Below are positions 7,128 through 62,986 of a DNA stretch of 64,000 bases, piece by piece. A program made the translations under genes and the position numbers. The DNA lies in assembly GCA_035274425.1 (NCBI GenBank), contig DATEOC010000031.1:1995-65994 (forward strand), given 5' to 3'. The notes under the pieces were generated by a model. The model had not been told where the DNA came from. It saw nothing but the letters and a program-made list of their open reading frames with translations, and ran no database searches. The stretch is from Chloroflexia bacterium. Its GTDB lineage: Bacteria > Chloroflexota > Chloroflexia > QHBQ01 > JADMIH01. The number at the start of each line of letters is the position of its first letter. The first letter of the stretch is position 1.

Positions 7128-7220
7128 GACGACAGACGACAGACGACAGACGACAGACGACGGACGACGGACGATATTCACCGCAGAGGCGCAGAGGTTT
7201 TGGGGTGATGCGTGAGTGAG
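7128..7220. repeat. Modular repeat block in the accD 5' region: (GACGACR)n + TTCACCGCAGAGGCGCAGAGG + GTGATGCGTGAG
   Basis: gacgacagacgacagacgacagacgacggacgacggacga; the same modules recur at 23388, 27511, 50574, 52393 and 57327. Confidence 0.5.
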
Positions 7221-7590
7221 GGTAAGTTGCGGGGAGGGGCGGGACCTGCGGGCAGGGAGATAGACCTGATACCTGGCGGGTTGATGGCCGCGTGGGTAGC
7301 GCCCCTATCGTCGCAACTGGTTTGGGTTCTATGGCTGAGTGCGTAGTGGCGCTCAGGGTTATTAGCTTGTAAGGCTCTGTGGGTAAGCACAGAGGGGCTT
7401 CCATGTTCATGTGGAAGCTGTGGGATATCGTGATCCCAGGATAGGGGCACCAGCGGGTCCCTTGATAGACACCTCTGCTGCGTCACAGGGGTGGAGTATG
7501 CATCCTCTATATTAATTAATCCCCTTTCTATGCCTTTTTGGGACAGGTTTTGGGACCAATTTACCTATTTCCTAATTTTTCATTTTGTAG

Positions 7591-7619
7591 ATTGACAAAT
7601 CAAATATAGTATGATATAT
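7591..7619 (+). promoter_or_regulatory. Sigma70-like promoter candidate in an AT-rich spacer upstream of the 7757 operon
   Basis: TTGACA, 17 nt, tgaTATATT (TG-extended -10). Confidence 0.35.
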
Positions 7620-7756
7620 TATTTACAGCAGGTTCAATCCTCTTAGGAATGGCCTATCATTATAGCTTACTCGAACTGTCGTATCGTCCTAGCTATTGAG
7701 TATTCTTGCCCCTTTCTCCATATATCGAGAAGGTATTATTTCACCTCTAAACCTAT

Positions 7757-8551
7757 TTGAGAAGGTGGTATACGAGCATGAGCAAATTTAACCCTATTAT
7801 AGCGATGTTGCTGTTGCTACTCGTAGCAATAGCCCTCAGCATAACGCTGGGAATAGGTGCCTCACGCACGAACGTGGGGCAGGCTCCAGCATCGCCTGTC
7901 GTTGTAACGGCATCACCCACAGTTCCAACAGAGACTTCTGTTGTGGCTTCGCCCACCACGTTAGAGAGTACCCCGCCACCTCCGGTAGGTACTGTATCGA
8001 ATCCCCTCCCAACTACTGTGATAGGGACGAGCACGCCCTTGCCTTTACTGACCGCGACTGCTGAAGCTCTAATGACACGTATGGCCGAATATCCTCCAAT
8101 ACCAAATCTCACTCCGAACCCGCAGGAGCAAGAGCGAAGGGCTGAATTGGAGATGTTGCGGTCGTTGTACCATTTGCCTGGCACTATCACTGCGCAGGGA
8201 TCGAATACAACCCCCAGCGGCGCTTTCCAACTGAAGACGTATCGTATTGAGGAAATAGAACTGCCTGAGCCAGTCACTTTCACTGAGCTCACGATTGGCA
8301 ACATTACTGTTGACAGGGTTTGGCGTATCGTCATAACAGGAGGGCCATTTCATGTGGGGCAACAATCTCTAGTCCTATACATCGACGGCAAGCCCGTAGC
8401 GAGCGGTTACGTCAGTTCTGCCAGTGGCGATGGGGTCCAATTCATTCTGTTTGATGATGCGTTGTTGCAGGAAGGCGCTATGATAGGCGTCAGTTTGACG
8501 ATGGGCGTGCCCTTGGTCACCTTACCGGAAACACTCCACTTTCAGCCGTAA
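7757..8551 (+). CDS. Secreted hypothetical protein: N-terminal TM/signal, Pro/Thr-rich linker, C-terminal domain of unknown function
   Basis: Hydrophobic N-terminus (IIAMLLLLLVAIALSITLGIGA) followed by a P/T/S-rich stretch; 23-bp gap with RBS ggag before the next gene. Confidence 0.6.
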   Translation: MRRWYTSMSKFNPIIAMLLLLLVAIALSITLGIGASRTNVGQAPASPVVVTASPTVPTETSVVASPTTLESTPPPPVGTVSNPLPTTVIGTSTPLPLLTATAEALMTRMAEYPPIPNLTPNPQEQERRAELEMLRSLYHLPGTITAQGSNTTPSGAFQLKTYRIEEIELPEPVTFTELTIGNITVDRVWRIVITGGPFHVGQQSLVLYIDGKPVASGYVSSASGDGVQFILFDDALLQEGAMIGVSLTMGVPLVTLPETLHFQP

Positions 8552-8574
8552 TCATTTAATGGAGAAATAGAATA

Positions 8575-13614: not shown

Positions 13615-13617
13615 GGT

Positions 13618-13674
13618 AGATAAAACAAAAGAGCCTTCCTTCGTTGCACGAAGGAAGGCTCTTTTGTTTTATCT
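13618..13674. terminator. Bidirectional terminator, perfect 26-bp palindrome arms
   Basis: agataaaacaaaagagccttccttcg ttgca cgaaggaaggctcttttgttttatct between convergent genes. Confidence 0.75.
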
Positions 13675-13682
13675 ATAACTCC

Positions 13683-15415: not shown

Positions 15416-17305
15416 ATGGGCCGGAAAGGATATATGAAGATGAGAAAGTGGCTACCGATCTTATTGGCTATCTGCCTGGTACTATCATTGGCGCAAGCTG
15501 GGGGAGAAGCTGGCGCTTCACCTTCTTTGCAGGATGATAGCAGGCACTTCCCGGAGACGGGGCAAACGGTAAAGGGTGCGTTTTTGCAGTACTGGGAGGA
15601 GCATGGAGGGTTGGCACAGCAAGGCTTACCCATTTCGGCGGAGATGCAGGAGCGGAGTGAGACAGACGGCAAGATGTACACGGTGCAGTACTTCGAGCGT
15701 GCGGTGTTTGAGCTGCACCCAGAGAACGAAGCTCCTCACGATGTGCTTCTCTCCCTGCTGGGGGTCTTCGAGTATAAGCGCAAGTACGGCGCGGGTGGAG
15801 CGCCCGATCAGCATGCAAGCGCCGACAGCCCGTTCTTATTCAAAGAGACGGGCAAGACGCTGGGAGGCAAGTTCAGGCGATATTGGGAGACGCACGGGGG
15901 ATTGCCCCAGCAAGGTTTCCCGATCTCCGATGAGTTTCAGGAGAGGAATGAGCTAGACGGCAAGATTTACACGGTGCAGTACTTCGAGCGGGCGGTGTTT
16001 GAGCTACACCCGGAGAATGCCGGTACAGAGTACGAGGTGTTACTGTCGCACCTGGGCAGGTTCCGGTACGATAGGCGGGGCGTACCTGCCGAAGCTACCA
16101 GGTGGTTGCGGGAGCACATGGTCCCTTTGAAGACGGCGGAACCTACCGACGACTTCAGCGATCTGATGCACCTGAAGCAATTCATCGGTGACGCACGGAT
16201 CGTCGGATTGGGGGAGGCAGCGCACGGCGGGCGGGAGTTCTTCACGATGAAGCACCGCCTCCTGAGGTTCCTGGTGAAGGAGATGGGTTTTACGCTCCTT
16301 GGGTTTGAGGACGGATGGGCGGAGTCGTTGAGCGCCAGCGATTACGTAGAGAGTGGCAAGGGTAGCGCCAAGAGCGCAGTGAATCGACTCCTCGCCTGGC
16401 CCTGGAAGGCGCAGGAAGTGGTTGACATGGTCGAATGGATGCGGGGTTATAACGAGGGCAGGGGAAGTGCTCCCGCGATCAGCTTCCAGGGGTTCGACAT
16501 GCAAGAGGCTAGCGGGGCGATGAACTTCGTGATTGCTTATCTGCAAACGGTAGACGCGCCGGCAGCAGAGCGAGCAATCGAGCGATACAAGTGCCTGGGC
16601 GCGGGGTTCGATTATCGCTCACTACCGCAGGATGTCAAAGCGCAGTGTCGTGCCGCATTGCAGCAAGTCCACGACGAGATGGCCGCGAACCGGGGGGCTT
16701 ACGAGGCAGCATCCTCCTCTCAGGCTTTTACCCAGGCCCAGTTCGGGGCGCGCGTGGTCTTGCAGACGGAAGAGCTATTCAGCACGCCAGACAATTTCGA
16801 CGTGCGGGACCACTATATGGCTGAGAACGTATCGTGGCTGCTGGAGCAACGCGGACCTAACGCTAAGGCTGTGGTGTGGGCGCACAATGGACACGTCGGC
16901 AATCTCCAGTATGCAGGGCACGATTATCCCAGTATGGGAATGCATTTGAGGCAGAAATACGGTGATGATTACAAGGTAATCGGCTTTGAGTTCAACGGAG
17001 GCTCCTTTAACGCCACATCGGGGCGGCTCCAGGTAAACACAGTTAAGGGAGCAACTGAAGGGAGCTACGGGCAATACTTCCACAGCGCTGGTATACCTTT
17101 GTTCTTCCTCGACCTGCGTGGTGTCAGGGCTGCTGGAGGGTCTGGCGAAACAGATTGGCTGGTAGGCCCCAGGAGGATATGGGATATAGGGCACCGTTTC
17201 CACCCAGGCGATCCCCTGGCCACTACAGCGGAGGTGAGCCTTCCCCAGGTATTTGATGGAGTTATCTTTGTAGACACGATAAGTGCGACGACTTTGCTGC
17301 CGTGA
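15416..17305 (+). CDS. Secreted erythromycin-esterase (Ere/ChaN) family protein with two N-terminal LGFP-like repeats
   Basis: Two ~70-aa repeats FPETG.T..G.F..YWE.HGGL.QQG.PIS.E.QER.E.DGK.YTVQYFERAVFELHPEN; then ARIVGLGEAAHGGREFFTMKHRLLRFLVKEMGFTLLGFEDGWAE, typical of erythromycin esterase. Confidence 0.75.
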   Translation: MGRKGYMKMRKWLPILLAICLVLSLAQAGGEAGASPSLQDDSRHFPETGQTVKGAFLQYWEEHGGLAQQGLPISAEMQERSETDGKMYTVQYFERAVFELHPENEAPHDVLLSLLGVFEYKRKYGAGGAPDQHASADSPFLFKETGKTLGGKFRRYWETHGGLPQQGFPISDEFQERNELDGKIYTVQYFERAVFELHPENAGTEYEVLLSHLGRFRYDRRGVPAEATRWLREHMVPLKTAEPTDDFSDLMHLKQFIGDARIVGLGEAAHGGREFFTMKHRLLRFLVKEMGFTLLGFEDGWAESLSASDYVESGKGSAKSAVNRLLAWPWKAQEVVDMVEWMRGYNEGRGSAPAISFQGFDMQEASGAMNFVIAYLQTVDAPAAERAIERYKCLGAGFDYRSLPQDVKAQCRAALQQVHDEMAANRGAYEAASSSQAFTQAQFGARVVLQTEELFSTPDNFDVRDHYMAENVSWLLEQRGPNAKAVVWAHNGHVGNLQYAGHDYPSMGMHLRQKYGDDYKVIGFEFNGGSFNATSGRLQVNTVKGATEGSYGQYFHSAGIPLFFLDLRGVRAAGGSGETDWLVGPRRIWDIGHRFHPGDPLATTAEVSLPQVFDGVIFVDTISATTLLP

Positions 17306-17336
17306 CGATAGACGATAGACGATAGACGATAGACGA
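17304..17336. repeat. (GATAGAC)n tandem heptamer run starting at the stop codon of the esterase gene
   Basis: gacgatagacgatagacgatagacgatagacga; inverted copies at 52505-52527. Confidence 0.5.
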
Positions 17337-17410: not shown

Positions 17411-17438
17411 CGCGGCATAGACAACTGAATATGTGTAC

Positions 17439-17639
17439 CACAGAGGTCGCCCGAAGCACGGAAGCGAGGGCGTCAATGGGGGAAGCCGGTGTAGTCCGGC
17501 GCTGTCCCGCAACTGTAGTCCGAAAACGAGTTGAAAGTTCAAGGTTCCAGGTTCAAGGAAGACCGTACTGCCGGTAACTTTGAACGTTGAACTTTGAACC
17601 TGAAACTAATCCCGGAGAGCCAGGATACCCACCTCTGTG
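17439..17639 (+). promoter_or_regulatory. Cobalamin (AdoCbl) riboswitch aptamer
   Basis: Core GGGAAGCCGGTGTAGTCCGGCGCTGTCCCGCAACTGTA; B12 box GAGCCAGGATACCCACC; P1 cacagaggt/acctctgtg. The variable peripheral stem holds a GTTCAAGG-repeat hairpin (17529-17607). Confidence 0.8.
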
Positions 17640-17792
17640 AGACTCCAACACCTTCGCGAGAAAGGGGGATAGGAGCGATGACGCAGGCATGCACCTTGCC
17701 GCGCATACCGCCTTAGGCCAGAAGGCAGTAAGCAGAGGGCAGTAGGCAGTAACGGGTCGTCGGGACGGGGAGCGAGGCTCCCAATTATGTCA

Positions 17793-51812: not shown

Positions 51813-51824
51813 CGTTTTCTCCCA

Positions 51825-52262: not shown

Positions 52263-52392
52263 CTCTATCTAACTCGCGTGTGCGGATTGGGCGGGAGATT
52301 TGCCCACAACCAGCCCCAATATTATATCGCACAGGCTCTGGGAAGCTAACCATACCTTACGCTTCACAGCTAGAGGAGGTTTTCCACAACCT

Positions 52393-52623: not shown

Positions 52624-52696
52624 TTCGGTGCTATCTGGCACGAAAGCTGCTCTATGGGATTTGCCGAATTGAACACCATAGAGATAGGGGACAGGC

Positions 52697-53218
52697 ATGA
52701 ACAATAACCTGCCGGATGATAAAACGCGGCCCATACCCTTGGTCGAAGAGCAAATAGAGGCTGTTTACGCCGAGGAGAATGGGGCTTCAGCCAAGAGTTT
52801 ACCCGCGGTTGCTGATGCGGCTGTCGTGCAGCTACGAGCTGAAGAGTTAGTCCCTGTAAAGGAATGGGTAGAGACGGGGGCGGTGCTGATAAAAAAGGGA
52901 GTAGAAGCATACCCGCAGACAATCCCCGTAGAAGTCCTGCACGAAGAGGTACACGTCGAGACCGTTCCAGCGAACAGGGTGCTGGCGGAAGGCGAAGTGG
53001 CTACGCCTCGCCAGGAGGGAGACGTGCTAATCATACCGGTCGTGCATGAGGAGCTGGTTGTCGTCAAGCGTTACGTCGTGCGCGAGGAGCTGCGCGTCAC
53101 AAAGGTGCGCGTAGCGGGTGTTCAAGAGGTGAGCGGCAGGGTACGCCGCGAGAACGTTAGCCTGGAGACGACAGGCAATGCGAAGATCCTGGCGGACGAT
53201 AATCTGCCCAGGGCCTGA
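52697..53218 (+). CDS. YsnF/DUF2382-repeat stress-response protein
   Basis: Two L.L.EE.L.V.K..VE.G.V...K-type repeats (EELVPVKEWVETGAVLIKK; EELVVVKRYVVREELRVTK). Confidence 0.7.
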   Translation: MNNNLPDDKTRPIPLVEEQIEAVYAEENGASAKSLPAVADAAVVQLRAEELVPVKEWVETGAVLIKKGVEAYPQTIPVEVLHEEVHVETVPANRVLAEGEVATPRQEGDVLIIPVVHEELVVVKRYVVREELRVTKVRVAGVQEVSGRVRRENVSLETTGNAKILADDNLPRA

Positions 53219-53316
53219 TACTTTTGTAGGTTTGTGCCGGGACCACTTCTGTGGAGGGCGCGGTTGCGGCGCGGATCGAAAATGGTCAAATCTTTATATC
53301 ACAACGATGAAAGGAC

Positions 53317-54117
53317 GTGAAATCAATGGCAAGCAACAATGAGAAGGTAGTAGGCGTTTTCCTCGATGAGTCTTACGCACAGAGGGCTTTGCAGGCACTC
53401 CAGGCCGCCGGGTATAGCGCCCAGGTGGCTGACGAGTCGGCAATCAAGGCGTTCAGGAACTCAGGCTTCCAGGATGAAGTAGTGAGCATGTACCAGAGCC
53501 GATACAACGAGGGGAATAGCATTCTCGTCGTCAACGGCGGAGGTCGCGGCGAGGACGCCCTGGGCATTATGCTGGAGAACGGGGCCGAGTACATCAACCT
53601 GTCGGACAAGAGCGGCGGCAACGGCCAGATGACTGCCCAGCAGTATGCCAGGCTGGATGCGGGGAGCCGCCAGTACGGGCGCTACAACGCCGATACGGGC
53701 CGCGCCAATACGGCTGAGGAGCTTCGAGTCCAGCTGCATCGCGAGGAGCTTTCAGCCACCAAGACCTCACAGCAGGCGGGCGAGGTAGAGGTACGCAAGG
53801 TCGTGCACGAGCGTGAGCAGCAAGTGCCCGTGAGCCTGCGGCACGAGGAAGTGTACGTAGAGCGCCGCGCCGTGGACGAGCCCGCGAACCCCGACGAGAT
53901 ACGCGACATGCGGGACGAGGTAATTCGCGTGCCCGTCTACGAAGAGCAAGCCCAGCTACAGAAGCAGGCCCGCGTCACCGAGGAAGTGGCTATAGGGAAG
54001 CGCGCCGTTGAAGAGCAGCAGACCCTATCGGGCACGGTGCGACACGAGCACGTAGAGATCGTGAATGACGGCAACGTGCAAGTCCATGGCGATGCGCAGG
54101 TAGATAACCCCGCCTAG
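53317..54117 (+). CDS. General-stress-protein-like N-terminal domain + DUF2382 (YsnF) C-terminal domain
   Basis: EELRVQLHREELSATKTSQQAGEVEVRKVVHEREQQVPVSLRHEEVYVERR. Confidence 0.7.
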   Translation: MKSMASNNEKVVGVFLDESYAQRALQALQAAGYSAQVADESAIKAFRNSGFQDEVVSMYQSRYNEGNSILVVNGGGRGEDALGIMLENGAEYINLSDKSGGNGQMTAQQYARLDAGSRQYGRYNADTGRANTAEELRVQLHREELSATKTSQQAGEVEVRKVVHEREQQVPVSLRHEEVYVERRAVDEPANPDEIRDMRDEVIRVPVYEEQAQLQKQARVTEEVAIGKRAVEEQQTLSGTVRHEHVEIVNDGNVQVHGDAQVDNPA

Positions 54118-54139
54118 CCTCTTCACAATCAAGAATTTT

Positions 54140-54178
54140 CTTACCAAAATGAGCGCCGCTGGCGCTCATTTTGGTAAA
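54140..54178. terminator. Bidirectional terminator
   Basis: cttaccaaaatgagcgcc gct ggcgctcattttggtaaag. Confidence 0.7.
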
Positions 54179-54187
54179 GGAAGACTT

Positions 54188-55180
54188 TTAGAAATCCCCA
54201 ATGAACTCGATCTCAGGCTCAAGCTCTATGCCGAACTGCTCTTTGACGCGGGCGCGAGCGAGGTCCATCAGGTGGCGCACGTCTGAGGCGGTGGCCCCGC
54301 CCAGGTTCATCATGAAGTTGGCGTGCTTGGGGGAGAACTGCGCCTGCCCATACCTCTCTCCCTTGAGGCCGGCCTGCTCTATGAGGTAGCCTGCGGATGA
54401 GCCCGGGGGGTTCTTGAAGGTGGAGCCTGCACTCTTGCCCTGGGGCTGCTTGGCCTGCCGCTCCTCAAGGTATGAGCGCATCCTGGCGTCGCACTCGCCT
54501 TGCGTGTCGCGGTGGAGGGTAATGTCGGCGCTTAATATCACTTCAGGAGGTGAGAGAGTACGGTTGCCGTGCGCTTTGAAGATGCTCGTGCGATAGCCGA
54601 GTTGCAACTTCTCGGTGGGCCACTCTTCTTTAACTCCATCGCGGGTGAGAACCTGGATGGAGACCATGTCATCCTTTAGCTCTTTGCCGTGCGCCCCGGC
54701 GTTGCTCACCACGCCGCCGCCGACGCTGCCGGGAACGCTGTTTGACCACTCCAACCCCGTCCACCCTTGCTGGCAGGTGAGGCGAGACAGCTTGCTGAAA
54801 AGCACCCCAGAATCGACACGCCACAGGCTCGTGCCGCCCTGACGCTCCTCGTGGGAGATGCCCTGCGACTTGTTGTGGATCACAAGTCCATTTATGCCGT
54901 AATCAGCGACGAGCATGTTCGTGCCATTGCCTATAACGAGGTAGGGTATATCGCTCTCCCTGGCGAAGAGTACAGACGCTACTAACTCCTCGGTGGTCGT
55001 TGCGGTGACGAATAGGGTAGCAGGGCCACCGATACGTAGCGAGTTGTGCTTACTCATCAACTCGTCTCGCGTCACCTTGAGACCAGTGGCCTCTTCAAGC
55101 TCGGCAGCCACGTCAGGTTGGAAGGTGATGGCGGCGCGCCTGGCGCTTGCTTGATTGTTTTTATTATTTGCCTGGTCCAT
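54188..55180 (-). CDS. murB: UDP-N-acetylenolpyruvoylglucosamine reductase
   Basis: FAD-binding LRIGGPATLFV; C-terminal GSTFKNP. Confidence 0.9.
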   Translation of the reverse strand: MDQANNKNNQASARRAAITFQPDVAAELEEATGLKVTRDELMSKHNSLRIGGPATLFVTATTTEELVASVLFARESDIPYLVIGNGTNMLVADYGINGLVIHNKSQGISHEERQGGTSLWRVDSGVLFSKLSRLTCQQGWTGLEWSNSVPGSVGGGVVSNAGAHGKELKDDMVSIQVLTRDGVKEEWPTEKLQLGYRTSIFKAHGNRTLSPPEVILSADITLHRDTQGECDARMRSYLEERQAKQPQGKSAGSTFKNPPGSSAGYLIEQAGLKGERYGQAQFSPKHANFMMNLGGATASDVRHLMDLARARVKEQFGIELEPEIEFIGDF

Positions 55181-55189
55181 ATCTGTATC

Positions 55190-56623
55190 TTATGGGATAT
55201 GTAAACTCTCTAGTATTGCCTCTCCCACTTTCCACACGTCGCCAGCACCCATCGTCAGCAGCACGTCGCCGGGACGCAGCTCGTCAAGCAAGGTGTTTGT
55301 AGCATCTTCCAGGGTTGGGACGAATGTGGCATTTTCTCCTGGCATTTTCTCGACGATGTGGCGGCCACTCATGCCGAGGGTGTCGCGCTCGCGGGAAGCG
55401 TAGATTTCGGTGACTAATATGTGGTCTGCGGCGCTCAAAGAGGATGCGAAGTCGTCCAGAAAGTCGCGGGTGCGGGTGTATGTGTGAGGTTGGAACAGGA
55501 CGACCAGGCGGTTGGAGGGGTAACGCTGGCGTGCGGCCTGCAATGTGGCGTCTATCTCCGTGGGGTGGTGGGCGTAGTCATCCACGACGGTGATGCCTTT
55601 GACCTCGCCCTTGACCTCGAAGCGACGACCCGCACCTACAAAATCGCCAAGCAATCGCGCCGCATCTTCAGCGGGCACACCCACTTCGACGCAAGCAGCT
55701 AACGCCGCGAGTGAGTTGAGGGCGTTATGCTTTCCAGGTATCTGTAAGGATACCCTGGTCAATTCCTCCCTATCTCGGAACGCTATATAGCTCGTACCAC
55801 CTTGCTCATTCGCCTCTATATTGCGCGCCTGCCAGGCTGAAGCGCCGTTTGTCCCATAAAATGGAGTCCTGTAGGGGAGGTCGCCATCAGCGCTGTGAGC
55901 AAATATAAGCCCTTCCAGGATGGCTCTGACGCCGTAAGCGTCATCGCAGAGTAACAATAGGCCCCCAGGGCGCACACTCAGAGCAAACTGCAAGAATGCC
56001 TGGTGGATAGCTAGATGGCTGCCGTAATACTCAAGATGGTCGCTCTCGACATTGGTGATGACGGCCACGTCGGGGCGCAGGTGGAGGAAAGAGCGGTCAT
56101 ACTCGTCCGCCTCTGCCACAAGCTCTTCGCCGGAACCCCAGTGCCCCCCCGGCCCCAACCCTCGAATGGTCCCACCGATCATGTACGAGGGGTCGCGTCC
56201 GGCTTTCGATAATATCCAGGCGATCATCGATGAGGTGGTGGTCTTGCCGTGCGTGCCTGCCACCGCGATGCCGCGTCGCAGGTCCATAAGCTCCCCAAGG
56301 AGGGCGGCGCGCTTTATGACGGGTATGCCACGCTCGTGGGCCGTAACAAGCTCAGGGTTATCGTCGGAGAGGGCGGCAGTCACTACCACGCGAGTAGCGT
56401 CGCCCAGGTTGTCCGCGCTATGCCCGATGTGGATGCGCGCACCACGCGCCTCAAGCTCCTCGGTAGCATCGGAAGCCGCCATGTCGGACCCCGAAACGGA
56501 CGCGCCCAGGTCAAGCAATGCAGAAGCAAGAGCGCTCATACCCGCTCCACCAATGCCGATGAAATGCCACGATTCCGAATTTTGAATTTTGAATTTTGAA
56601 TTTTGAATTTTGGGTGTGGTCAT
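55190..56623 (-). CDS. murC: UDP-N-acetylmuramate--L-alanine ligase
   Basis: HFIGIGGAGMSALA; GTHGKTTTSSMI. Its N-terminal MTTPKIQNSKFKIQNSE is encoded by the (gaatttt)n repeat. Confidence 0.9.
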   Translation of the reverse strand: MTTPKIQNSKFKIQNSESWHFIGIGGAGMSALASALLDLGASVSGSDMAASDATEELEARGARIHIGHSADNLGDATRVVVTAALSDDNPELVTAHERGIPVIKRAALLGELMDLRRGIAVAGTHGKTTTSSMIAWILSKAGRDPSYMIGGTIRGLGPGGHWGSGEELVAEADEYDRSFLHLRPDVAVITNVESDHLEYYGSHLAIHQAFLQFALSVRPGGLLLLCDDAYGVRAILEGLIFAHSADGDLPYRTPFYGTNGASAWQARNIEANEQGGTSYIAFRDREELTRVSLQIPGKHNALNSLAALAACVEVGVPAEDAARLLGDFVGAGRRFEVKGEVKGITVVDDYAHHPTEIDATLQAARQRYPSNRLVVLFQPHTYTRTRDFLDDFASSLSAADHILVTEIYASRERDTLGMSGRHIVEKMPGENATFVPTLEDATNTLLDELRPGDVLLTMGAGDVWKVGEAILESLHIP

Positions 56624-56692
56624 GAAGCAATCTGGCTCGCCCGCGAAATCTCACTCCCAATTCAAAATTGAGAATTAAGAATTCAAAATTCC
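56575..56692. repeat. (GAATTTT)n / (AATTCAAAATT) inverted hairpin spanning the murC start
   Basis: ccgaattttgaattttgaattttgaattttgaattttggg ... cccaattcaaaattgagaattaagaattcaaaattcc. Confidence 0.7.
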
Positions 56693-57315
56693 TACAGGGC
56701 TGTGCGGAGCACGCGCCAGATAGTGTACACGATTATGATGAGGAGGAAAAGGCCGAGCGCGACGGTCGAGATGCCCATGAGGGGGTTGGTGCTGGGGAGG
56801 CCGCCCACGCCTATGGAGATTTGGGGGACTGTGACCGCCGCCGCGCCGGAGGGGTTGGAGCCACTCCGCTTTACGAAGTCGCTCCAGTAGTCGAACGCGC
56901 CTGAGAGGGCCAGCACGGCAGCAATGCCGCCGAACGCGCCCCCGATGAGGCGGCCCAGGAGTCCGACGTCGTCACGCCCGGCCAGCTTGCGTGCTACCCA
57001 CCACGCCACCACCACCAATACAAAGAAGAGTATAGCTGTAGCGAGCGGCTCCCAGGGCGAGGCGATTTCGACCTGCGGGGTCTGGATGCTGTTTTCGTCC
57101 TTGTCGGCGGCGATAGCGAAGAACTGCCCCAGGACGCTGAAGAACTTGTTTATAAAGAGGTCGAGCTTCGGCCCCAGGCGGCCTGCCACCAACCCTGAGA
57201 AGAAGACCCCAACAGTCCACACCGCCATCACCCTCCAGCCCATGTAGAGGCCCATGACCACGCACGCGAGCATGGCTGGAAGGACCCATTGCCACCATTC
57301 GAGCTGGATAACCAT
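56692..57315 (-). CDS. Polytopic membrane protein, possibly CvpA-family; occupies the usual murG slot
   Basis: 4-5 TM helices; loosely CvpA-like; no glycosyltransferase motifs. Confidence 0.45.
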   Translation of the reverse strand: MVIQLEWWQWVLPAMLACVVMGLYMGWRVMAVWTVGVFFSGLVAGRLGPKLDLFINKFFSVLGQFFAIAADKDENSIQTPQVEIASPWEPLATAILFFVLVVVAWWVARKLAGRDDVGLLGRLIGGAFGGIAAVLALSGAFDYWSDFVKRSGSNPSGAAAVTVPQISIGVGGLPSTNPLMGISTVALGLFLLIIIVYTIWRVLRTAL

Positions 57316-57326
57316 GTGTTACCTCT

Positions 57327-57446
57327 GGACGACAGACGACGGACGACGGACGACGGATGATAGGCAAGGACTGAGGACTGAGGACTCAGGACTGAGGGGT
57401 AAACCACCTGTCGTCCGTCGTCCGTCGTCCGTCGTCTGTCGTCTGG
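57327..57446. repeat. Hairpin (GACGACR)n - (GGACTGA)4 - rc(GACGGAC)n
   Basis: ggacgacagacgacggacgacggacgacgg ... ggactgaggactgaggactcaggactgagg ... cctgtcgtccgtcgtccgtcgtccgtcgtctgtcgtctgg. Confidence 0.7.
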
Positions 57447-57448
57447 CG

Positions 57449-58621
57449 TTACGCATTACGTAGCACTCTCATGCGCTGCCTTGCTGGGCTTGGCCTCGGG
57501 GCTTCGGCTACTGCTGAGTTGGCGTACTTCGATATGTTGAGCAGGAGACCTACTCCCGCCAGGGTGATAATGAGGGAGGAGCCGCCGTAGCTCACGAATG
57601 GGAGGGGCACGCCAGTGAAGGGGATAGCGCCGCTGACCGCGCCGATATTCAGCATCGCCTGGAAGATCAGCCATGTGGTTATGCCGGTGGCGACGAGGGA
57701 GCTGAAACCGTCGGGAGCTTTCTGGGCGACTCGATAGCCGCGCCATGCCAGGAGAAGGAAGAGGCTAATCATCAGCGCCGCGCCTATAAAGCCCATCTCC
57801 TGGCCGTATACCGAGAAGATGGCATCTGTAGATTGCTCAGGCAACCAGCCGAACTTCTGGCGCGATGCCCCCAGGCCCATGCCTGTGACGCCCCCTGAGC
57901 CGAGCGCCAGGAGCGACTGCACCGAGTGGTAGCTCACGCCGAGGGGGTCGTGCCAGGGGTCCATGAAGGAGAGGACGCGCCCCCAACGATAGGGCGCGAC
58001 TACGGCAGCAAGTAAGAAGCCACCAATCGCCAGCAAAAGGCCTACGGCCATGTGCTTGAGAGCCGCTCCTGACACAAAGTACATCGCCACCCCGATTGAG
58101 AATATTACCAGCGTGGTGCCCATGTCCGGCTCCATGAAGACCAGTCCACCGAGCATGCCGAGCATGATACCGAATGGGATGAGGCCATTGTGGAAGTCGC
58201 GCACTTTCTCACCCTTGGTGGAACACCAGTCCGCCAGGTAGAGCACGAACGCCAGCTTCGCGAACTCAGAGGGTTGCAGGCCGATGGGAAGGTTGCCGAG
58301 CGACAGCCACCGCTTCGCACCCTTGATCTCCTCCGAGATGAAGGAGGGACCAACCAGCACGAGCACGAGGAGGATGAGGGCTATCACGACGGCGGGGACC
58401 GAGTAGCGCCGCCAGCGGGTGTAAGGCACGGTCATCGTGAGCACGAGCGCGCCCGCCCCGAACAGGAGCATCATCATATGGCGGTTTATCAGGTAGGTAG
58501 GGTTGTCAGGGTCAATCCCGCTTGAGGAGAAGACCATGAGCATACCGATCAGACACAGCACCCCCACGAGGGCCAGTATCCAATAGTCGGGTCGTTCAAA
58601 TCTGCGGGAGCGTCCGGGCAT
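57449..58621 (-). CDS. ftsW: SEDS-family peptidoglycan glycosyltransferase FtsW (dcw context)
   Basis: FtsW/RodA/SpoVE topology and motifs (PSEFAK; GGSSLIITLAGVGLL). Confidence 0.9.
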   Translation of the reverse strand: MPGRSRRFERPDYWILALVGVLCLIGMLMVFSSSGIDPDNPTYLINRHMMMLLFGAGALVLTMTVPYTRWRRYSVPAVVIALILLVLVLVGPSFISEEIKGAKRWLSLGNLPIGLQPSEFAKLAFVLYLADWCSTKGEKVRDFHNGLIPFGIMLGMLGGLVFMEPDMGTTLVIFSIGVAMYFVSGAALKHMAVGLLLAIGGFLLAAVVAPYRWGRVLSFMDPWHDPLGVSYHSVQSLLALGSGGVTGMGLGASRQKFGWLPEQSTDAIFSVYGQEMGFIGAALMISLFLLLAWRGYRVAQKAPDGFSSLVATGITTWLIFQAMLNIGAVSGAIPFTGVPLPFVSYGGSSLIITLAGVGLLLNISKYANSAVAEAPRPSPARQRMRVLRNA

Positions 58622-58743
58622 AAGAGGTCAGGGGTTACATTTCATTCTTTTTCCACTGCGGGTCCAGAAGAATGAAATGTAAAATTAGGATGGCAATTAT
58701 GGGGCATAGCGGCCCTGGAAGATTAGTCTACCTTATGGGGAGG

Positions 58744-60174
58744 TCAGGAAGGGGGGTTTTCCACAGGGGCAAGCGAGGCCACGATAGCCCGGAAAAGCTC
58801 GCCACGATGGAATTCATTGTTGAACATGCCGAAGGAGGCAGTGCCGGGGGAGAGGAGGACCGAGCCGCCATCAGGCGCTGCCCGCCAGGCGGCACGTATA
58901 GCAGCCTCGAAGTCGTCGTAGCGGCCTATCACGTTCGCGCCTGCTTCGCGTAATTGGCGAGCCATCAATTCCGTAGCGCTACCTTCCAGGAGGGCTACAG
59001 CGTAGGTTCGCTCGGCGGCTACGCTCGACAGGGCTGCGAAGTCGAGGCCCTTGTCAGCCCCGCCTGCTATCAGGACGATTGGCCCCTCGACTGCGTTGAG
59101 CGCGGCGATGGTGGAAGTGGGCGTGGTAGAGGTGGTGTCATTGTAGAAACGCACGCCGTCCAGGGTGGTGAGGTATTCCAGGCGGTCAGCCACGCCCTGA
59201 AAGGACTTTAAGCCCGCTTGTACAGCACTAAGTGGTGCACCGGCCAATATCGCTATCGTGGCGGCGCATGCGGCGTTCGCGAGGTTGTGGGGGCCGGGCA
59301 CCTGCACGTCGCTCGTGGGAGCGATAAGGGTCTGCTCTCCTGATGCATCTATCCATAGAAAGTCATCTTCGGTTACGAAGACGCCAGGCTGGCGTCCAGG
59401 GGAGAAGCCAATGCCGAACCAGGCGACACCCACTGGGGCCTCTGACGCCCATGCGGACACAGTAGGGTCGTAGGCGTTCAGCACGGCCCAGTCGCCAGGG
59501 CGCTGGTGGAGGAAGACCAGCTTCTTGGCCGCGCCGTACTCTTCCATGCTCCCCTTGTACCTGTCCATGTGGTCGGGGGAGAGGTTGGTGACGGCACCGA
59601 TACGGGGGGCAAGGCGAGGCTCCTCAAGCCCCTCAAGCTGGTAGCTGGAAAGCTCCAACACTACGGGCGTACCGGGCGCGATACGGGGCAGCGCTTCAAG
59701 GGCGGATACGCGCAGGTTGCCTGCCAGCAATGCATCGGGCCGCCAATGGCGCACCATCTCCCACGTCCAGGTCGCGGTGGTGGACTTACCCTTCGTACCT
59801 GTCACGGCCAATACTGGGCCGTCATAAAGGCGCAGGAAGATGCTGAACTCCATCTCGACCGGCTTGCCCAATTCGCGGGCGAGGCGCACCCAGGGCGATG
59901 AGAAGGGCACCGCCTGGTTCTTCACGATCAGGTCGGCCCACCGGAAATCCTCCTCGCGGTGCTCACCCAGGGTGTAGGTGATGGGGTGCGGGAAGTGCTC
60001 GCTCTCCAGCGCATCGAGGGAGTCCTGCATTTTGTCAGCAGTGCGCAGGTCAGTGACGCGCACGTAAGCGCCCTGGCGTGCCATGAAACGGGCGACGCCA
60101 AGCCCGCCCCCGTGTACGCCGAGGCCCATGACGAGGACATGCTTGCCTGAGTAAAGTGATAGAGGGTCAGACAT
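58744..60174 (-). CDS. murD: UDP-N-acetylmuramoylalanine--D-glutamate ligase
   Basis: GKHVLVMGLGVHGGGLGVARF; GTKGKSTT. Confidence 0.9.
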   Translation of the reverse strand: MSDPLSLYSGKHVLVMGLGVHGGGLGVARFMARQGAYVRVTDLRTADKMQDSLDALESEHFPHPITYTLGEHREEDFRWADLIVKNQAVPFSSPWVRLARELGKPVEMEFSIFLRLYDGPVLAVTGTKGKSTTATWTWEMVRHWRPDALLAGNLRVSALEALPRIAPGTPVVLELSSYQLEGLEEPRLAPRIGAVTNLSPDHMDRYKGSMEEYGAAKKLVFLHQRPGDWAVLNAYDPTVSAWASEAPVGVAWFGIGFSPGRQPGVFVTEDDFLWIDASGEQTLIAPTSDVQVPGPHNLANAACAATIAILAGAPLSAVQAGLKSFQGVADRLEYLTTLDGVRFYNDTTSTTPTSTIAALNAVEGPIVLIAGGADKGLDFAALSSVAAERTYAVALLEGSATELMARQLREAGANVIGRYDDFEAAIRAAWRAAPDGGSVLLSPGTASFGMFNNEFHRGELFRAIVASLAPVENPPS

Positions 60175-60180
60175 ACTAGG

Positions 60181-61323
60181 TTAGACGAGAGCAAGTGCTA
60201 CGCCCAGCATGCCCGCTACTATGCTAACCAGCCAGAATCGCATAGTTATCTGCGTCTCGGACCAGCCGAGCATCTCGAAATGGTGATGTAGGGGGGCCAT
60301 CCTGAAGAGGCGCTTGCCGCCCGTCAGCTTGAAGTAGAGCACCTGTAGAATGTCCGAGACTATCACGGCCACGAACACGATGCCTATGAGGGGCAGCAGC
60401 AGCCACTGGTTAGTCATCAGCGCACATACCGCCAGCAATGCGCCAAGGGTCAGCGCCCCCGTATCGCCCATGAAGACCATCGCGGGGTGAGCGTTGAACC
60501 AGAGGAAGGCCAGCAGCGACCCCACTACCGCGAAGCACAATGCGACGACGTGCGGCTGCTTCTGCAAATACGCGATTATGCCATAAGAGACGAAGGCGAT
60601 TGCCGAGGTGCCGCCCGCCAGCGTGTCCAAGCCATCGGTCAGGTTGACCGCGTTCGCCATACCCACGATAGCTATTATCGCGATGGGGATATACCATATC
60701 CCGAACTCTATAGGTGTTTGCAGGAAGGGGAAGTAGAGCTTATCTAGCCTCAAGGGTACGTACAGTATGTAGGCGGTCAAGCTGCCGATGGCGAGGAGCC
60801 AGGCCATCTTGAAGCGCGCAGTCAGCCCACCTCTGTTGCGCACTACCGTGCTCAGGAGGTCGTCGAAGCCGCCCAGGATGCCGCACGACACCACTATCCC
60901 CAGGGGGAGGAGCAGGGATGGAAAGCGCGGAATGTCCATAAATATGCCGATAGCTATCACCAGGGGGATGAGGAATATCAGCCCGCCCATCGTCGGCGTG
61001 CCGGTCTTCACCTGGTGGCGCTCCGGCCCTTCGATGCGTATGTGCTTACCTATGCGATGGTCGCGCAACCAGGTGATAATAGGCTTGCCGATAATGAGAC
61101 CTATCACGAAAGCCACCGCGCCGAGCGTCAACCCACGTATCATATCTATTGGGGCCAGTGACGCCAGCGTGCCGGGGATGGGCGTTGGAGTGGCCGCCGG
61201 AATAGGAGTGGCAATTGGCGTGGCCTGCGCTAGCACGGATAGGGCTGAGTTTTGGATACCAAGTATGGGGTCCGCACCTGCGGACAGACATAGCAAAGTA
61301 TCGATTAGGGAGTTATGTAACAT
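60181..61323 (-). CDS. mraY: Phospho-N-acetylmuramoyl-pentapeptide transferase
   Basis: 10-TM protein; NAVNLTDGLDTLAGG. Confidence 0.9.
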   Translation of the reverse strand: MLHNSLIDTLLCLSAGADPILGIQNSALSVLAQATPIATPIPAATPTPIPGTLASLAPIDMIRGLTLGAVAFVIGLIIGKPIITWLRDHRIGKHIRIEGPERHQVKTGTPTMGGLIFLIPLVIAIGIFMDIPRFPSLLLPLGIVVSCGILGGFDDLLSTVVRNRGGLTARFKMAWLLAIGSLTAYILYVPLRLDKLYFPFLQTPIEFGIWYIPIAIIAIVGMANAVNLTDGLDTLAGGTSAIAFVSYGIIAYLQKQPHVVALCFAVVGSLLAFLWFNAHPAMVFMGDTGALTLGALLAVCALMTNQWLLLPLIGIVFVAVIVSDILQVLYFKLTGGKRLFRMAPLHHHFEMLGWSETQITMRFWLVSIVAGMLGVALALV

Positions 61324-61411
61324 AATTTAGTCAAGGGTTTTGGATTTATTCACAGCAGAGACGTAGAGGTCGCAGAGATTTCTATCATCATATAGGACTT
61401 CGAGCCATCGA

Positions 61412-62815
61412 TTATGCCCTCAAGCCATCTACTATTTGCTCCATCTGAAGGCCCCTGGAGCCTTTGACCAGCACGTAATCGCCCGTTTTCAGTACGCGCA
61501 TGAGGTATTCAATAACTTGCTCATTATCCGCCGCGAAGAAGACGCGCTCAGGAGCCATGCCAATGCGTAGCGCCTCCTCACCGATAAGCCGCCCCAGCGT
61601 GCCGACAACCACCAGGCGGTGGGCCACCACGCTCGCACGGCGCGCCACCTTCAGGTGACCCTCTTGCTCGTAGCTGCCAAGCTCCAGCATGTCGCCCAGT
61701 ACCGCGATGCGATTCCCCTTCATGTCATCCAGGAGGTTAAGCGCGGCGATGGTCGAGTCGGGCGACGCATTGTAGCTGTCGTCTATGAGAGTGGAACCGT
61801 TGTAGCCTGGGACGACGATGAGGCGTACCTGAGCATCGAGGCGTTGCAGGGCGTGCACGATTTCGTCCCAATCCATACCCGCGGCGTGAGACGCACCGGC
61901 GGCGGCCAGTGCGGTATGTACGCTGTGGCGACCCAGGAGTGGGAGGCGCACCCGCCAGCTTCCGCCCCCGGTGCGCTCGTGCAGAGTGAAATGCACACCC
62001 GCGAGGCCTTGCCCCTCGATATTAGTGGCGTGGAGGTCGCAGCCCTCCTCTAAGCCGTAAGTGATGACGCGGGCAGAGGTGGTATCGCGCATGGCGAGAA
62101 CGAGGGGATCATCACCATTCAGGACGGCTGTACCATCGGAGGGTAGGGCACGGATGATCTCACTCTTGTTGAGGGCGATGTTTTCAATCGTGCCCATACG
62201 CTCAAGGTGGACAGGCTTGACGTTGGTGACGACCGAAATCTCCGGCTTCGCCAGCTCGCACAGCAGGGTTAGTTCTCCAAGCGCGTAGCCTCCCCCCATC
62301 TCAAGGACCGCTTTCTGATGGCTATCGGTGAGCTGCAAGAGGGTAAGGGGCAATCCAATCTCGTTGTTGAGGTTGCCTGCGTTCTTGAGGGTCTTGAAGC
62401 GGCTCGACAATACGGCAGCCGTAACTTCCTTGGTAGAGGTCTTGCCCACGCTGCCGGTGATGCCGATAACCTGCACGTGGCGGTGCTTATCACGCCACCA
62501 TGCCGCCAGCTTTTGAAGGGCTGCTAGAGGGTTGTCGACCCGAACGAGGACCACATCCGAGGAGAGAGCTTCGGGAGGCTGCCAGGTTGGGCTGACGAGC
62601 GCGCCGCGAGCACCGTGCCCCACAGCATCGAGCACGAAGCTATGCCCATCCACATGCTCCCCTGGGAGCGCCACAAATAGCCCGCCTGCCAGCGACGCAC
62701 GCGAGTCTGTCGCCACGCAGGTGAAGAAGGTCGTTAGTCCATCGAGCGCGTGGGAGGCTTCGCCTCTATCTACGTACCCTTCGGTGGCTACCAGTATGTC
62801 TTTCAGAGTGAGCAT
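61412..62815 (-). CDS. murF: UDP-MurNAc-tripeptide--D-Ala-D-Ala ligase
   Basis: GITGSVGKTSTKE; C-terminal VLGDMLELG...VLVKGSRGLQMEQIV typical of MurF (no DNPR motif of MurE). Confidence 0.85.
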   Translation of the reverse strand: MLTLKDILVATEGYVDRGEASHALDGLTTFFTCVATDSRASLAGGLFVALPGEHVDGHSFVLDAVGHGARGALVSPTWQPPEALSSDVVLVRVDNPLAALQKLAAWWRDKHRHVQVIGITGSVGKTSTKEVTAAVLSSRFKTLKNAGNLNNEIGLPLTLLQLTDSHQKAVLEMGGGYALGELTLLCELAKPEISVVTNVKPVHLERMGTIENIALNKSEIIRALPSDGTAVLNGDDPLVLAMRDTTSARVITYGLEEGCDLHATNIEGQGLAGVHFTLHERTGGGSWRVRLPLLGRHSVHTALAAAGASHAAGMDWDEIVHALQRLDAQVRLIVVPGYNGSTLIDDSYNASPDSTIAALNLLDDMKGNRIAVLGDMLELGSYEQEGHLKVARRASVVAHRLVVVGTLGRLIGEEALRIGMAPERVFFAADNEQVIEYLMRVLKTGDYVLVKGSRGLQMEQIVDGLRA

Positions 62816-62827
62816 GGGGGTTTAAGT

Positions 62828-62986
62828 CCAAAGTTCGAGGTTCGAAGTTCGAGGTTCAAGGTTCAAGGTTAGAACAAGGAAAAGGATAACCTATATTTTC
62901 CAAAGAGGCAATAAGCCTTGTTACCTCTGGGACTTTGAACTTTGAACTTTGAACTTTGAACTTCGAACTTTGAACTTTAGACTTCG
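62828..62986. repeat. GTTCGAGG/GTTCAAGG module hairpin between ftsI and murF
   Basis: ccaaagttcgaggttcgaagttcgaggttcaaggttcaaggtt ... gggactttgaactttgaactttgaactttgaacttcgaactttgaactttagacttcg. Confidence 0.7.

Follow-up and report, generated by a model that had tools for sequence, protein, structure and literature searches.

The window examined here, a stretch of 64,000 nucleotides from the genome of a Chloroflexia bacterium (NCBI GenBank assembly GCA_035274425.1, contig DATEOC010000031.1, positions 1,995 to 65,994 of the forward strand), carries about one element per 3 kb that is built from short tandem repeats, chiefly of 7 nt, and most of these elements consist of inverted blocks that are able to fold into a hairpin. 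The window is ordinary chromosome, and is identical to part of a metagenome contig (ENA ERZ27257050 k141_509755; 141,853 bp). Encoded on its minus strand is a dcw (division and cell wall) cluster with genes for a penicillin-binding protein (PBP), murF, mraY, murD, ftsW, an open reading frame (ORF) of 207 aa (orf207), murC, murB, ddl, ftsQ, ftsA and ftsZ. Further genes include accD and accA, transporters, among them an energy-coupling factor (ECF)/cobalt transporter preceded by a cobalamin riboswitch, and toxin-antitoxin-like pairs; domain annotation revealed no transposase among the window genes.

Heptamer arrays in the window

Tandem arrays were listed with Tandem Repeats Finder (TRF) and an array scan of our own, and a period scan, in which a score of at least 12 denoted a strong array, was compared with ten dinucleotide shuffles. 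Twenty-two strong arrays of period 7 were present in the window, versus 0.0 in the shuffles, together with a single strong array of period 6 and none of periods 2-5 or 8-13; the shuffles had none at any period. The repeat unit is essentially 7 nt. Modules of the forms CGCAGAG(N), CGCCAAGA, ACGCAAAG and CACAAAGA(A), which recur with a period of 8-9 nt, constitute a separate class. An original prediction, made from the sequence alone, had described one family of 6-8-nt modules lying in nearly every intergenic spacer and between almost every pair of dcw genes. All 19 of the positions that it listed do carry the modules ascribed to them, as judged by TRF and inspection of the sequence, and the 7-nt period holds, but there is no 6-nt class, and the heptamer arrays and the CGCAGAG-type 8-9-mers are two arm classes with different distributions as opposed to one family. 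The frequency was also overstated, since strong arrays lie in 12 of the 44 spacers of at least 40 nt (about 18 of the 44 with weaker TRF arrays) and at 6 of the 11 dcw junctions, while arrays internal to ORFs, at 3514, 20138, 22514-22653, 48557 and 48659, had been missed. The bias towards non-coding sequence is nonetheless strong: 16 of the 22 strong arrays fall within non-coding DNA, which makes up 12.6% of the window (binomial p = 1e-10), and three more are at doubtful ORF ends that have probably been over-called.

At least 25 unit classes occur within the 64 kb. Several are dispersed, with GACGACR present at 4 loci, GTTCAAG at 3 and GTGATGC at 5, and some are linked in a one-step mutation network (GACGACA/GACGACG/GACGATG/GACGATA). 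Amongst the longer modules, the 20-mer TTCACCGCAGAGRCGCAGAG occurs 6 times with at most 2 mismatches, versus 0 expected, and GTGATGCGTGA occurs 10 times, versus 1.3 expected. A CRISPR was ruled out by inspection, the units being contiguous and lacking spacers. Contigs assembled from short reads of other samples start or stop within heptamer arrays (L121, 1-30 and 5545; L125, 2170-2200; L numbers denote the stretches collected for comparison). Since the arrays break such assemblies, their abundance in metagenome-assembled genomes (MAGs) is probably underestimated. A 15/30-nt tandem repeat of 5.9 copies within a subtilase-family ORF (1689-1776 (+)) is a coding repeat and is unrelated to the heptamer arrays.

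Folding and position of the elements

The significance of folding was expressed for 19 array loci as a z-score against shuffled sequences. Thirteen of these fold at z of -3.0 or lower, down to -11.5, with energies of -30 to -78 kcal/mol and inverted arms that are 24-61 nt in length and 80-96% complementary. The modular, recurrent elements that had been predicted are therefore real, and most are indeed inverted blocks with the capacity to fold, but about one third are not hairpins. The plus strand folds better at five loci, regardless of gene direction, with similar counts elsewhere; a replication-linked C>T bias could account for this.

The arrays described in this section were called by TRF, joined by the array scan at 3514, 17304, 38924 and 48557. 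At co-directional junctions, considering the window and its relatives together, the stem starts 0-12 nt past the first base of the upstream stop codon and reaches to within 0-13 nt of the end of the downstream start codon, as seen at 10 of the 12 junctions; such a hairpin takes up practically the entire spacer. The spacer between accD and accA, for example, is filled by an (AAAGGAT)n/(TTTATCC)n stem (6126-6199; 93% complementary, z -6.5) that overlaps the accD stop codon and stops 9 nt short of the last base of the accA start codon, and that between a DUF1706 gene and azlC by (GTTCAAR)x6.4/(TTGAACT)x3 (42978-43072; z -6.5), which runs from stop codon to start codon with 0 nt unpaired at either end. 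Within the dcw cluster, the spacer between ftsW and orf207 is filled by (GACGACR)x4.4 and (YGTCGTC)x4.9 enclosing a loop of (AGGACTG)x4.4 (57327-57445; 95% complementary, -77.9 kcal/mol, z -8.9), and a hairpin of (GAATTTT)x5/(AATTCAA)n extends from the orf207 stop codon towards murC (56577-56691; z -3.0). Between the cupin gene and ddl the stem is GAGTCGGGGGTCGGGGATCAGGG ... CCCTGACCCC..CCCCGACCCC (51815-51905; -43.7 kcal/mol, z -3.8), and at the junction of the genes for an ABC-F protein and a major facilitator superfamily (MFS) transporter (AGGAGTC/AGGAATC)x5 has a short partner (38924-38961; z -5.3). The hairpin between the PBP gene and murF, (GTTCRAG)n/(ACTTTGA)n (62824-62986; -60.2 kcal/mol, z -6.9), has variants that are homogenised arm by arm, with AAGGTTC in one arm and AAAGTTC in the other. 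Its loop holds the promoter-like motif TTGCCT-17 nt-TATCCT, which is matched at the same place in the loops of three other genomes (TTGTCT/TATCCT, TTGCCA/TATGCT and TTGCCA/TATGCT; L123, L124 and L128) and is, from these sequences, a candidate promoter.

Among the other hairpins, the lowest z-score, -11.5, belongs to (CACAAAGAA)n/(TCTTTGTGG)n, with 61-nt arms, between convergent genes (24355-24501). Arms may also be nested: the element at 27511-27656 comprises (GGACGAC)x3, (GCGTGAT)x3, a loop, (CTCTGCGY)x3-GGTGAA and (CYATCGT)x6 (-61.8 kcal/mol with z -2.7; z -3.8 in the 19-locus test), and the largest, at 52393-52623 (-82.4 kcal/mol, z -3.7), comprises (GACGACG)x2, (GTGATRC)x4, (CGCCAAGA)x4, a loop, (CTATCGT)x3, (TCACGTT)x3 and (CCGTTGT)x9. 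At 29733-29893, (AAGGATA)x3.3 is followed by a hairpin of TAGGGAT/GGGGTCG ... GACCCCC/CCCTAAT (z -8.4). Ahead of the ECF/cobalt transporter, a (GTTCAAG)n/(AACTTTG)n hairpin (17537-17607 (+); z -4.4) lies in the variable insertion of the cobalamin riboswitch (17427-17650; Rfam, 62.4 bits), the array falling within the insert that is left unaligned to the Rfam model; (GACGATA)x4.7 (17304-17336 (+)) begins upstream of it in the stop codon of the preceding gene, and a degenerate (TAGGCAG)x5 with 70% matches (17714-17751 (+)) lies in the leader that follows.

Several of the loci that do not fold are composites. Those at 7128-7215 (+) ((GACGACR)x6.7, TTCAC(CGCAGAGG)x2, TTTTGG, GTGATGCGTGA; z -0.2) and 23388-23564 (+) (TTCAC(CGCAGAGN)x3, (GTGATGC)x3.6, (ACGCAAAG)x2, (AAATCCG)x4.7; z -0.2) are of this kind, as is that between ddl and ftsQ at 50527-50663 ((GATTTTG)x4.7, TTCAC(CGCAGAG)x2-3, (TCACGCA)x2.7, (TCACGTT)x2.6; z -1.6). 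At 21368-21437 (+), (CGCCAAGA)x3 is followed by TTCACCGCAGAGACGCTGAG (z +1.1), and a degenerate single arm, TTCACAGCAGAGACGTAGAGGTCGCAGAG, with 2 mismatches, lies between murF and mraY (61349-61377 (+); z +0.4). The arrays at 7128, 27511 and 52393 are in divergent promoter regions.

Coding sequence is also occupied. An array of (CCAAAAT)x4.1 (3514-3542), scored as coding, lies between the two domains of a 975-aa GGDEF/HD-GYP ORF, (CCCCGAC)x3.6 (20138-20162) lies within the ORF at 19102-20286, and the (CGGAGTG)x4.6 and (CTTGGGGG)x3.5 arrays of ftsA (48557-48686) are in an insert that is hypervariable among relatives (alignment columns ~265-330 are not conserved). A nested hairpin at 22514-22653 (+), (GGGGTCG)n-(AATTACG)x4.6-small palindrome-(CGACCCC)n (z -5.3), supplies, in frame, the linker that joins both ABC_tran domains of the ORF at 21713-23443; in this 576-aa ORF (+), the linker of ~50 aa is the repeat hairpin in translation (..VGVGDRGSVITNYELRITN..STDPRPLAPDP..). 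Two ABC ATPase genes may have been fused by an intergenic element. What these sites have in common is tolerance of self-folding extra sequence with little harm. For genome annotation, the array hairpins mean spurious small ORFs, over-extended gene starts and gene fusions such as that of the ABC ATPases, and for short-read assembly they mean disruption, two contigs here ending within arrays.

The array hairpins are not transcription terminators. A terminator scan called none of them in the interval 47000-64000, they have no U-tract on the 3' side, and what comes after the stems, within operons, is a Shine-Dalgarno site with a start codon. They do not belong to an Rfam 15 family either, the cobalamin riboswitch alone passing the gathering threshold in the window, and a permissive search returned only sub-threshold generic microRNA-precursor hairpins. 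As had been proposed, the elements are distinct from five perfect palindromes (5054-5106, 13617-13675, 19023-19071, 29158-29216 and 37573-37623), which lie directly 3' of genes, mostly between convergent ones, and have arms of 23-28 nt that are 100% complementary, a loop that is always 3 nt, a G+C-rich centre and A-rich or T-rich outer parts. These resemble two-way terminators, perfect symmetry over more than 50 nt being unusual. A second palindromic element, GTCATYCTGAGCGNAGCGAAGRATC with its reverse complement, is found at 21493-21586 and, as inverted pairs, in many Chloroflexota loci (L003, L020, L052, L063, L122, L123, L128); in L063 its arms are 400 nt apart and may likewise enclose a small gene.

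Turnover between relatives

The dcw loci of Chloroflexia relatives (L122, L123, L124, L126, L128 and others), with FtsW proteins 65-89% identical to that of the window, have period 7 as their main enriched period, with 3-9 arrays per 21 kb, and one adds two arrays of period 8. Comparison of orthologous spacers revealed arrays or hairpins at the same dcw junctions, built from unrelated units. At the junction of ftsW and orf207, for instance, the unit is GACGACR in the window, GTATTGC at the start of the spacer in the relative with 89% identical FtsW, and GGAATGC/AATCCGC in L123. Many relatives lack a hairpin at the matching junction, including L122, in which this spacer is 33 nt long. Conversely, 11 of the 54 unit classes compared over Chloroflexota genomes recur in at least two genomes, at non-orthologous sites; the number of between-genome coincidences is 24, versus ~2 estimated by chance given ~1,170 possible classes. 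The window, L120 and L121 are identical, and L126 is separated from L127 by 3 substitutions, with no indel in an array.

Other features of these clusters were observed in passing. In L128 (6324-8118) one unit recurs in alternating orientation around whole genes, as (CTAACTT)n before ftsW, (TAGAAGT)n after ftsW and (TTCTAAC)n after a four-helix-bundle gene, and long-range pairing across a gene is therefore possible. The spacer between murD and ftsW (58622-58743 (-) in the window; 880-996 in L125) has a promoter-like TAGACT/TAAACT followed by a 16-bp hairpin; the relative with 89% identical FtsW has a wholly different stem but retains an AACCGCAKGG-like loop, and this may be a conserved leader structure of ftsW. 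Every dcw cluster examined has a conserved ORF of 192-211 aa between ftsW and murC (56692-57315 (-) in the window; L122, L123, L124, L126, L128), without a Pfam or NCBIfam match and in the position usually occupied by murG, and no murG was seen in these clusters.

A second arm class shared across phyla

The 20-mer was next sought as an exact match, in one genome per species. It is present in at least 119 stretches which, among the matches listed, represent more than 20 phyla, including Chloroflexota, Acidobacteriota, Planctomycetota, several proteobacterial classes, Desulfobacterota, Verrucomicrobiota, Bacteroidota, Gemmatimonadota, Nitrospinota, Nitrospirota, Armatimonadota, Firmicutes and candidate phyla; some of the stretches are from contigs of megabase length, and one is from an isolate. 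The left edge of the module is sharp, at TTCAC. In 55% of the copies listed the reverse complement is no more than 260 nt away, across an intervening loop that is not conserved, and the copies are mostly intergenic, with a depletion between divergent genes (10 divergent, 26 convergent, 48 tandem). IMG/VR contigs have the 20-mer too, in 49 stretches that contain 92 period-7 arrays in 415 kb with the same unit vocabulary; two such contigs that were checked are phage-like or gene transfer agent (GTA)-like structural clusters. The modules are thus not confined to the window, being found in relatives, in other phyla and in IMG/VR contigs. The 8-9-mers are the cross-phylum class and the heptamer units are mainly those of Chloroflexota, with 8 of 22 arrays in other phyla using units that are also present in Chloroflexota.

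An all-against-all BLAST of the ORFs at the 119 loci, in search of a common neighbouring gene, gave only one large family, at 15 loci, and a gene association of the 20-mer emerged only from inspection of the long 'loops' described below.

Cassettes with genes between the arms

In two of the related dcw loci, L128 and L124, a gene of ~120 aa belonging to PF05635/TIGR02436 lies between inverted heptamer arrays, at junctions that carry short hairpins in the window, L122 and L123. The family is annotated as '23S rRNA intervening-sequence protein', is a four-helix bundle and has a weak match to Avd of diversity-generating retroelements (DGRs); PF05635 has been recognised as Avd-like (PMC10053308). 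At the junction of mraY and murD the same GGATTTT/AAAATCC arms are present in both L122, without a gene, and L124, with one. A metagenome scan with the TIGR02436/PF05635 family yielded 32 non-redundant loci with G+C contents of 0.30-0.65, at 28 of which the inverted repeats on either side of the gene score higher than the controls' 95th percentile (median score 17.75 versus 7.5; the highest control scored 14.5). Period-7 arrays number 25 in the 8.1 kb of flanks of these genes and 4 in 80.8 kb elsewhere, a ~60-fold difference. The window's own member of the family (32771-33124 (+)) is followed, just 3', by two DUF433 genes (33171-35546 (+)), one of them succeeded by a PIN-like/DUF5615 gene, in toxin-antitoxin-like pairs.

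The CGCAGAG-type arms bracket a different gene. In four copies of the 20-mer the partner arm is 444-856 nt away, and in two of these, L029 and L075, a GxxExxY gene (TIGR04256; PF13366, PD-(D/E)XK) of ~127 aa occupies the interval. Three further independent contexts were obtained via homologues, and in these ACCGCAGAGRCGCNGAGRRCGCAGAG lies just before the start codon and its reverse complement just after the stop codon. In all five complete contexts (L029, L075, L218, L223, L229), ACCGCAGAGRCGCNGAG... is upstream of the gene and the reverse complement downstream, and a further context, L024, has one arm only, at a contig edge. The TTCACCGCAGAG... module is the terminal inverted repeat of GxxExxY cassettes, the inverted pair also existing as a hairpin, TTCACCGCAGAG...CTCTGCGGTGAA. 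The earlier suspicion that the elements are mobile and that the TTCACCGCAGAG module has a protein partner fits with this arrangement. Beside the full cassette of L075 is an ORF-less hairpin that retains 20 N-terminal codons of GxxExxY. The best homologues of the protein, 72-82% identical, are from Thermomicrobiales, Anaerolineae, Dehalococcoidia, Acetothermia and Tritonobacter. In the viral contigs, a scan for the four-helix-bundle family gave one locus and a scan for GxxExxY confirmed none.

With respect to individual cassettes, L218 (500-700) has two ORF-less TTCACCGCAGAG...CGGCGGTG hairpins in tandem, directly 5' of a full GxxExxY cassette, and in L229-L238 (L235, 373-1561, for example) the cassette is located between an AFOR_C ORF and an AFOR_N/AFOR_C ORF, where it may have entered, or landed beside, an aldehyde ferredoxin oxidoreductase gene.

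Interpretation and alternatives

The architecture, positions and turnover of the arrays, their shared vocabulary and their bracketing of two gene families invite an explanation in terms of mobile cassettes. There is about an even chance, in our estimation, that the window hairpins are gene-less miniature relatives of two selfish cassettes of the intervening-sequence (IVS) type, overlaid by expansion and contraction of tandem repeats. One type would have heptamer-array arms and a full-length form with the ~120-aa four-helix-bundle gene (TIGR02436/PF05635, Avd-like). The other would have arms of TTCAC(CGCAGAGN)2-4 and a full-length form with the ~127-aa GxxExxY gene (TIGR04256, PD-(D/E)XK fold). 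The short hairpins would then descend from, or be moved by, gene-carrying cassettes in the manner of transposable elements of the miniature inverted-repeat kind (MITEs), and would persist where a self-folding insert is structurally neutral. By drawing the upstream stop codon and downstream start codon together, the stem could allow translational coupling to survive; long stems may be cut by RNase III in the transcript, by analogy with rRNA intervening sequences, and slippage in a 7-nt register would homogenise and resize the arms.

Several observations weigh against the cassette explanation. Neither an insertion event nor an empty site nor a target-site duplication was observed, junctions inspected by eye had no consistent direct repeat flanking the hairpins, and near-identical contigs from other samples were without a change in copy number. 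One third of the array loci do not fold, amongst them five of the six loci with a TTCACCGCAGAG module (z -1.6 to +1.1). In the window, the four-helix-bundle gene has no flanking inverted repeat (score 7) and a GxxExxY gene was not found, and of about 70 ORF-less hairpins one, that of L075, has a recognisable gene remnant. Wrongly binned MAG contigs could explain some of the cross-phylum sharing of heptamers, the stretches of other phyla with Chloroflexia-type units being L028, L046, L062, L079, L100, L113 and L116. We know of no demonstrated mobility function for either the four-helix-bundle or the GxxExxY family. Mismatches in the two strongest dcw hairpins read as A.C in the mRNA and as G.U in the antisense strand, which argues against strong selection on a sense-strand RNA stem. 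The 7-nt period is left unexplained, and the means of movement, and the reason why the 20-mer copies of the window are mostly single arms beside heptamer arrays, are beyond the present account.

The main rival is that polymerase slippage with a preference for 7 nt builds the arrays in place, as pure simple-sequence repeat (SSR) dynamics with no mobile element, the inverted pairs being harmless survivors. This is unlikely, but is to be taken seriously. It could feasibly account for point variants homogenised within one arm, as at the PBP-murF hairpin, for units linked by single mutational steps, and for arrays in any tolerant site, coding linkers included, and it sits well with the lack of a transposase in the window and of a shared family around the 20-mer loci. 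In many genomes, moreover, according to the introduction of one paper, no class of long SSR is commoner than the heptanucleotides (Mrazek 2007; PMC4679880). Random local seeds cannot, however, yield identical units across loci, genomes and phyla, and slippage leaves unexplained the exact 20-mer in more than 20 phyla among the matches listed, the complete swap of units at one junction between relatives with 89% identical FtsW, and the ~60-fold excess of arrays next to a single family of small genes in genomes that are otherwise array-less.

Selection for a cis-acting RNA is a distinctly improbable explanation, though one with some evidence in its favour. Under this proposal the hairpins tune operon expression via translational coupling, RNase III processing or protection of transcript ends; in the coupling variant, the terminating ribosome melts the base of a stem that hides the next start site. 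Stems do span stop codon to start codon, leaving no room for a free Shine-Dalgarno site between mraY and murD in L122, orf207 and murC in L123, or the DUF1706 gene and azlC in the window; hairpins of unrelated sequence occupy the same junctions in different genomes, such that structure is kept and sequence is not; and a stem bridges accD and accA, which encode a 1:1 enzyme pair. Nevertheless, many relatives do without a hairpin at the same junction (as in the 33-nt spacer of L122), a third of the loci are non-hairpins, arrays are found within protein linkers as well, the mismatches favour the antisense strand in the best cases, and the promoter-like motif in the PBP-murF loop implies that the two arms need not share a transcript.

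The omega repressor of plasmid pSM19035, a ribbon-helix-helix protein, binds to series of 7-bp heptads, whether these are direct or inverted. By extension, each 7-bp unit could bind one dimer of a small protein in double-stranded DNA, the arrays being operator-like, centromere-like or nucleoid-organising sites, and a strict 7-bp register irrespective of sequence, a limited vocabulary that fits a limited protein set, and arrays that flank a promoter-like motif or lie in divergent promoter regions (7128, 27511, 52393) would all be in keeping with this. It is very unlikely even so, in that no protein emerged as a candidate, the 25 or more unit classes in 64 kb would require many specificities, arrays lie within ORFs and the riboswitch, and the mirror symmetry of the arms is given no role. 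Movement in trans by a RAYT (REP-associated tyrosine transposase) encoded elsewhere in the genome, as for repetitive extragenic palindromic (REP) elements and their inverted doublets (REPINs), is equally hard to credit: the elements are intergenic, hairpin-forming inverted doublets that are often mosaic, like bacterial interspersed mosaic elements (BIMEs), and 20-mer hairpins are depleted between divergent genes as REPs are, but there is no conserved REP palindrome of 20-40 nt, the arms consist of tandem repeats that vary in number, neither the window nor the surroundings of the 119 loci listed yielded a Y1 transposase, and the arms bracket two other gene families instead.

Returning to the cassette explanation, a wider form of it can be offered tentatively, with doubt somewhat outweighing belief. 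Heptamer repeats and the cross-phylum CGCAGAG hairpins would together be the inverted ends and gene-less offspring of a large, undescribed class of tiny selfish cassettes that carry either a four-helix-bundle or a GxxExxY gene, and of which rRNA intervening sequences were the first members to be noticed; these would have spread across phyla and phage-like regions, inserting where self-folding RNA or DNA is tolerated, with both proteins recognising or moving the arms. If true, the existence of such a class would explain why 7-nt repeats fill some bacterial genomes. Both protein families, the four-helix bundle and GxxExxY, are among the most abundant 'hypothetical' small proteins of environmental bacteria.

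Comparison with known systems

Heptanucleotide repeats have been known in cyanobacteria since 1990 and were found later in Xanthomonas, Burkholderia, Beggiatoaceae and Chloroflexus, and there is no agreement as to where they come from, what they do or why the unit is 7 nt; rRNA intervening sequences, known for as long, are likewise unexplained. The present evidence joins these two, and two gene families, in that arms of the same kind bracket genes and stand alone as hairpins, with one arm sequence being identical across more than 20 phyla among the matches listed. The link to cassettes may explain the old puzzle of bacterial heptamer repeats. The original prediction had drawn no connection to the heptamer repeats of cyanobacteria, Xanthomonas or Chloroflexus, or to rRNA intervening sequences (PMC4692102, PMC6749651, PMC4990558). 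In the literature, no paper was found to connect the four-helix-bundle or the GxxExxY family with tandem repeats at its flanks other than in rRNA, and an exact-sequence search found no relevant paper quoting the module sequences.

Short tandemly repeated repetitive (STRR) sequences have been reported inside the RNase P RNA of heterocystous cyanobacteria, a situation resembling that of the riboswitch here. As described in the papers that cite the original reports (Mazel 1990; Mrazek 2007; via PMC4692102 and PMC4679880), these repeats share with the window arrays a dispersed, intergenic distribution, the use of a small set of units at numerous loci and head-to-tail units of 7 nt, whereas paired inverted arrays, nested modules and a bracketed gene do not feature in those secondary descriptions. 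The canonical units CCCCAGT, TTGGTCA and CAACAGT are, furthermore, absent from the window, with relatives having only the one-mismatch variants CTGGTCA and CAACTGA, and the host is a Chloroflexia MAG as opposed to a heterocystous cyanobacterium. Nested insertions and an association with heptamer arrays were reportedly described by Elhai in 2008 for small dispersed repeats of cyanobacteria.

Xanthomonas has ~185 GGGAATC arrays, with 70-75 convergent inverted pairs per genome; like the arrays described here they are intergenic, have 2-26 units and often form opposite-strand pairs with the capacity to form a stem-loop or cruciform, but they are built from a single G-rich unit that has been studied as a quadruplex former (PMC4692102), whereas the window has at least 25 units, few of them G-rich. 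Xanthomonas also has the four-helix-bundle family, the structure having been solved from X. campestris (PMC4990558), a paper that draws no connection between that family and the heptamer repeats. Within the same phylum as the window, Chloroflexus aurantiacus has scattered (GATAGRA)n satellites, the unit being near-identical to GACGATA here (PMC6749651). TAACTGA repeats, common to Beggiatoaceae, cyanobacteria and Bacteroidetes, often lie just 5' of start codons, and horizontal spread by a vehicle that is not known has been suspected (PMC4679880). Both are described as plain direct repeats, with no hairpin, nesting or associated genes reported.

MITEs, the REP, BIME and REPIN elements, BOX elements and the small dispersed repeats of cyanobacteria (PMC3116915) are likewise short, non-coding and intergenic with inverted ends, and are mosaic in the case of BIME and BOX. 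As with MITEs, terminal inverted repeats are common to the ORF-less hairpins and the gene cassettes (the TTCACCGCAGAG arms; the GGATTTT arms of L122 and L124; the deletion derivative of L075). The arms here differ in being tandem arrays of variable number as opposed to a fixed sequence, no target duplication was seen, and the partner genes, encoding an Avd-like four-helix bundle and a protein of PD-(D/E)XK fold, are not known transposases.

The rRNA intervening sequences of Coxiella burnetii, Leptospira and Salmonella (PMC4990558) differ from the elements described here in location, since the window contains no rRNA (Rfam) and its elements are in mRNA spacers, a riboswitch and ORF linkers, and in that most elements here lack an ORF and have arms that are long, pure arrays. 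Conversely, the intervening sequence in the Coxiella 23S rRNA, which has been termed a selfish element, has a 28-bp terminal inverted-repeat stem that is subject to cleavage by RNase III, an S23p ORF, and tandem GACAGAT heptamers that vary in number between strains (PMC4990558). The likeness extends to inverted-repeat ends that form a long stem, as in the window hairpins, and to a position at the tip of an RNA helix, comparable with the hairpin at the stem tip of the riboswitch. The S23p/PF05635 ORF, which an intervening sequence may carry, is absent from the window hairpins but is found between inverted repeats in L124, in L128 and in 28 of the 32 metagenomic loci.

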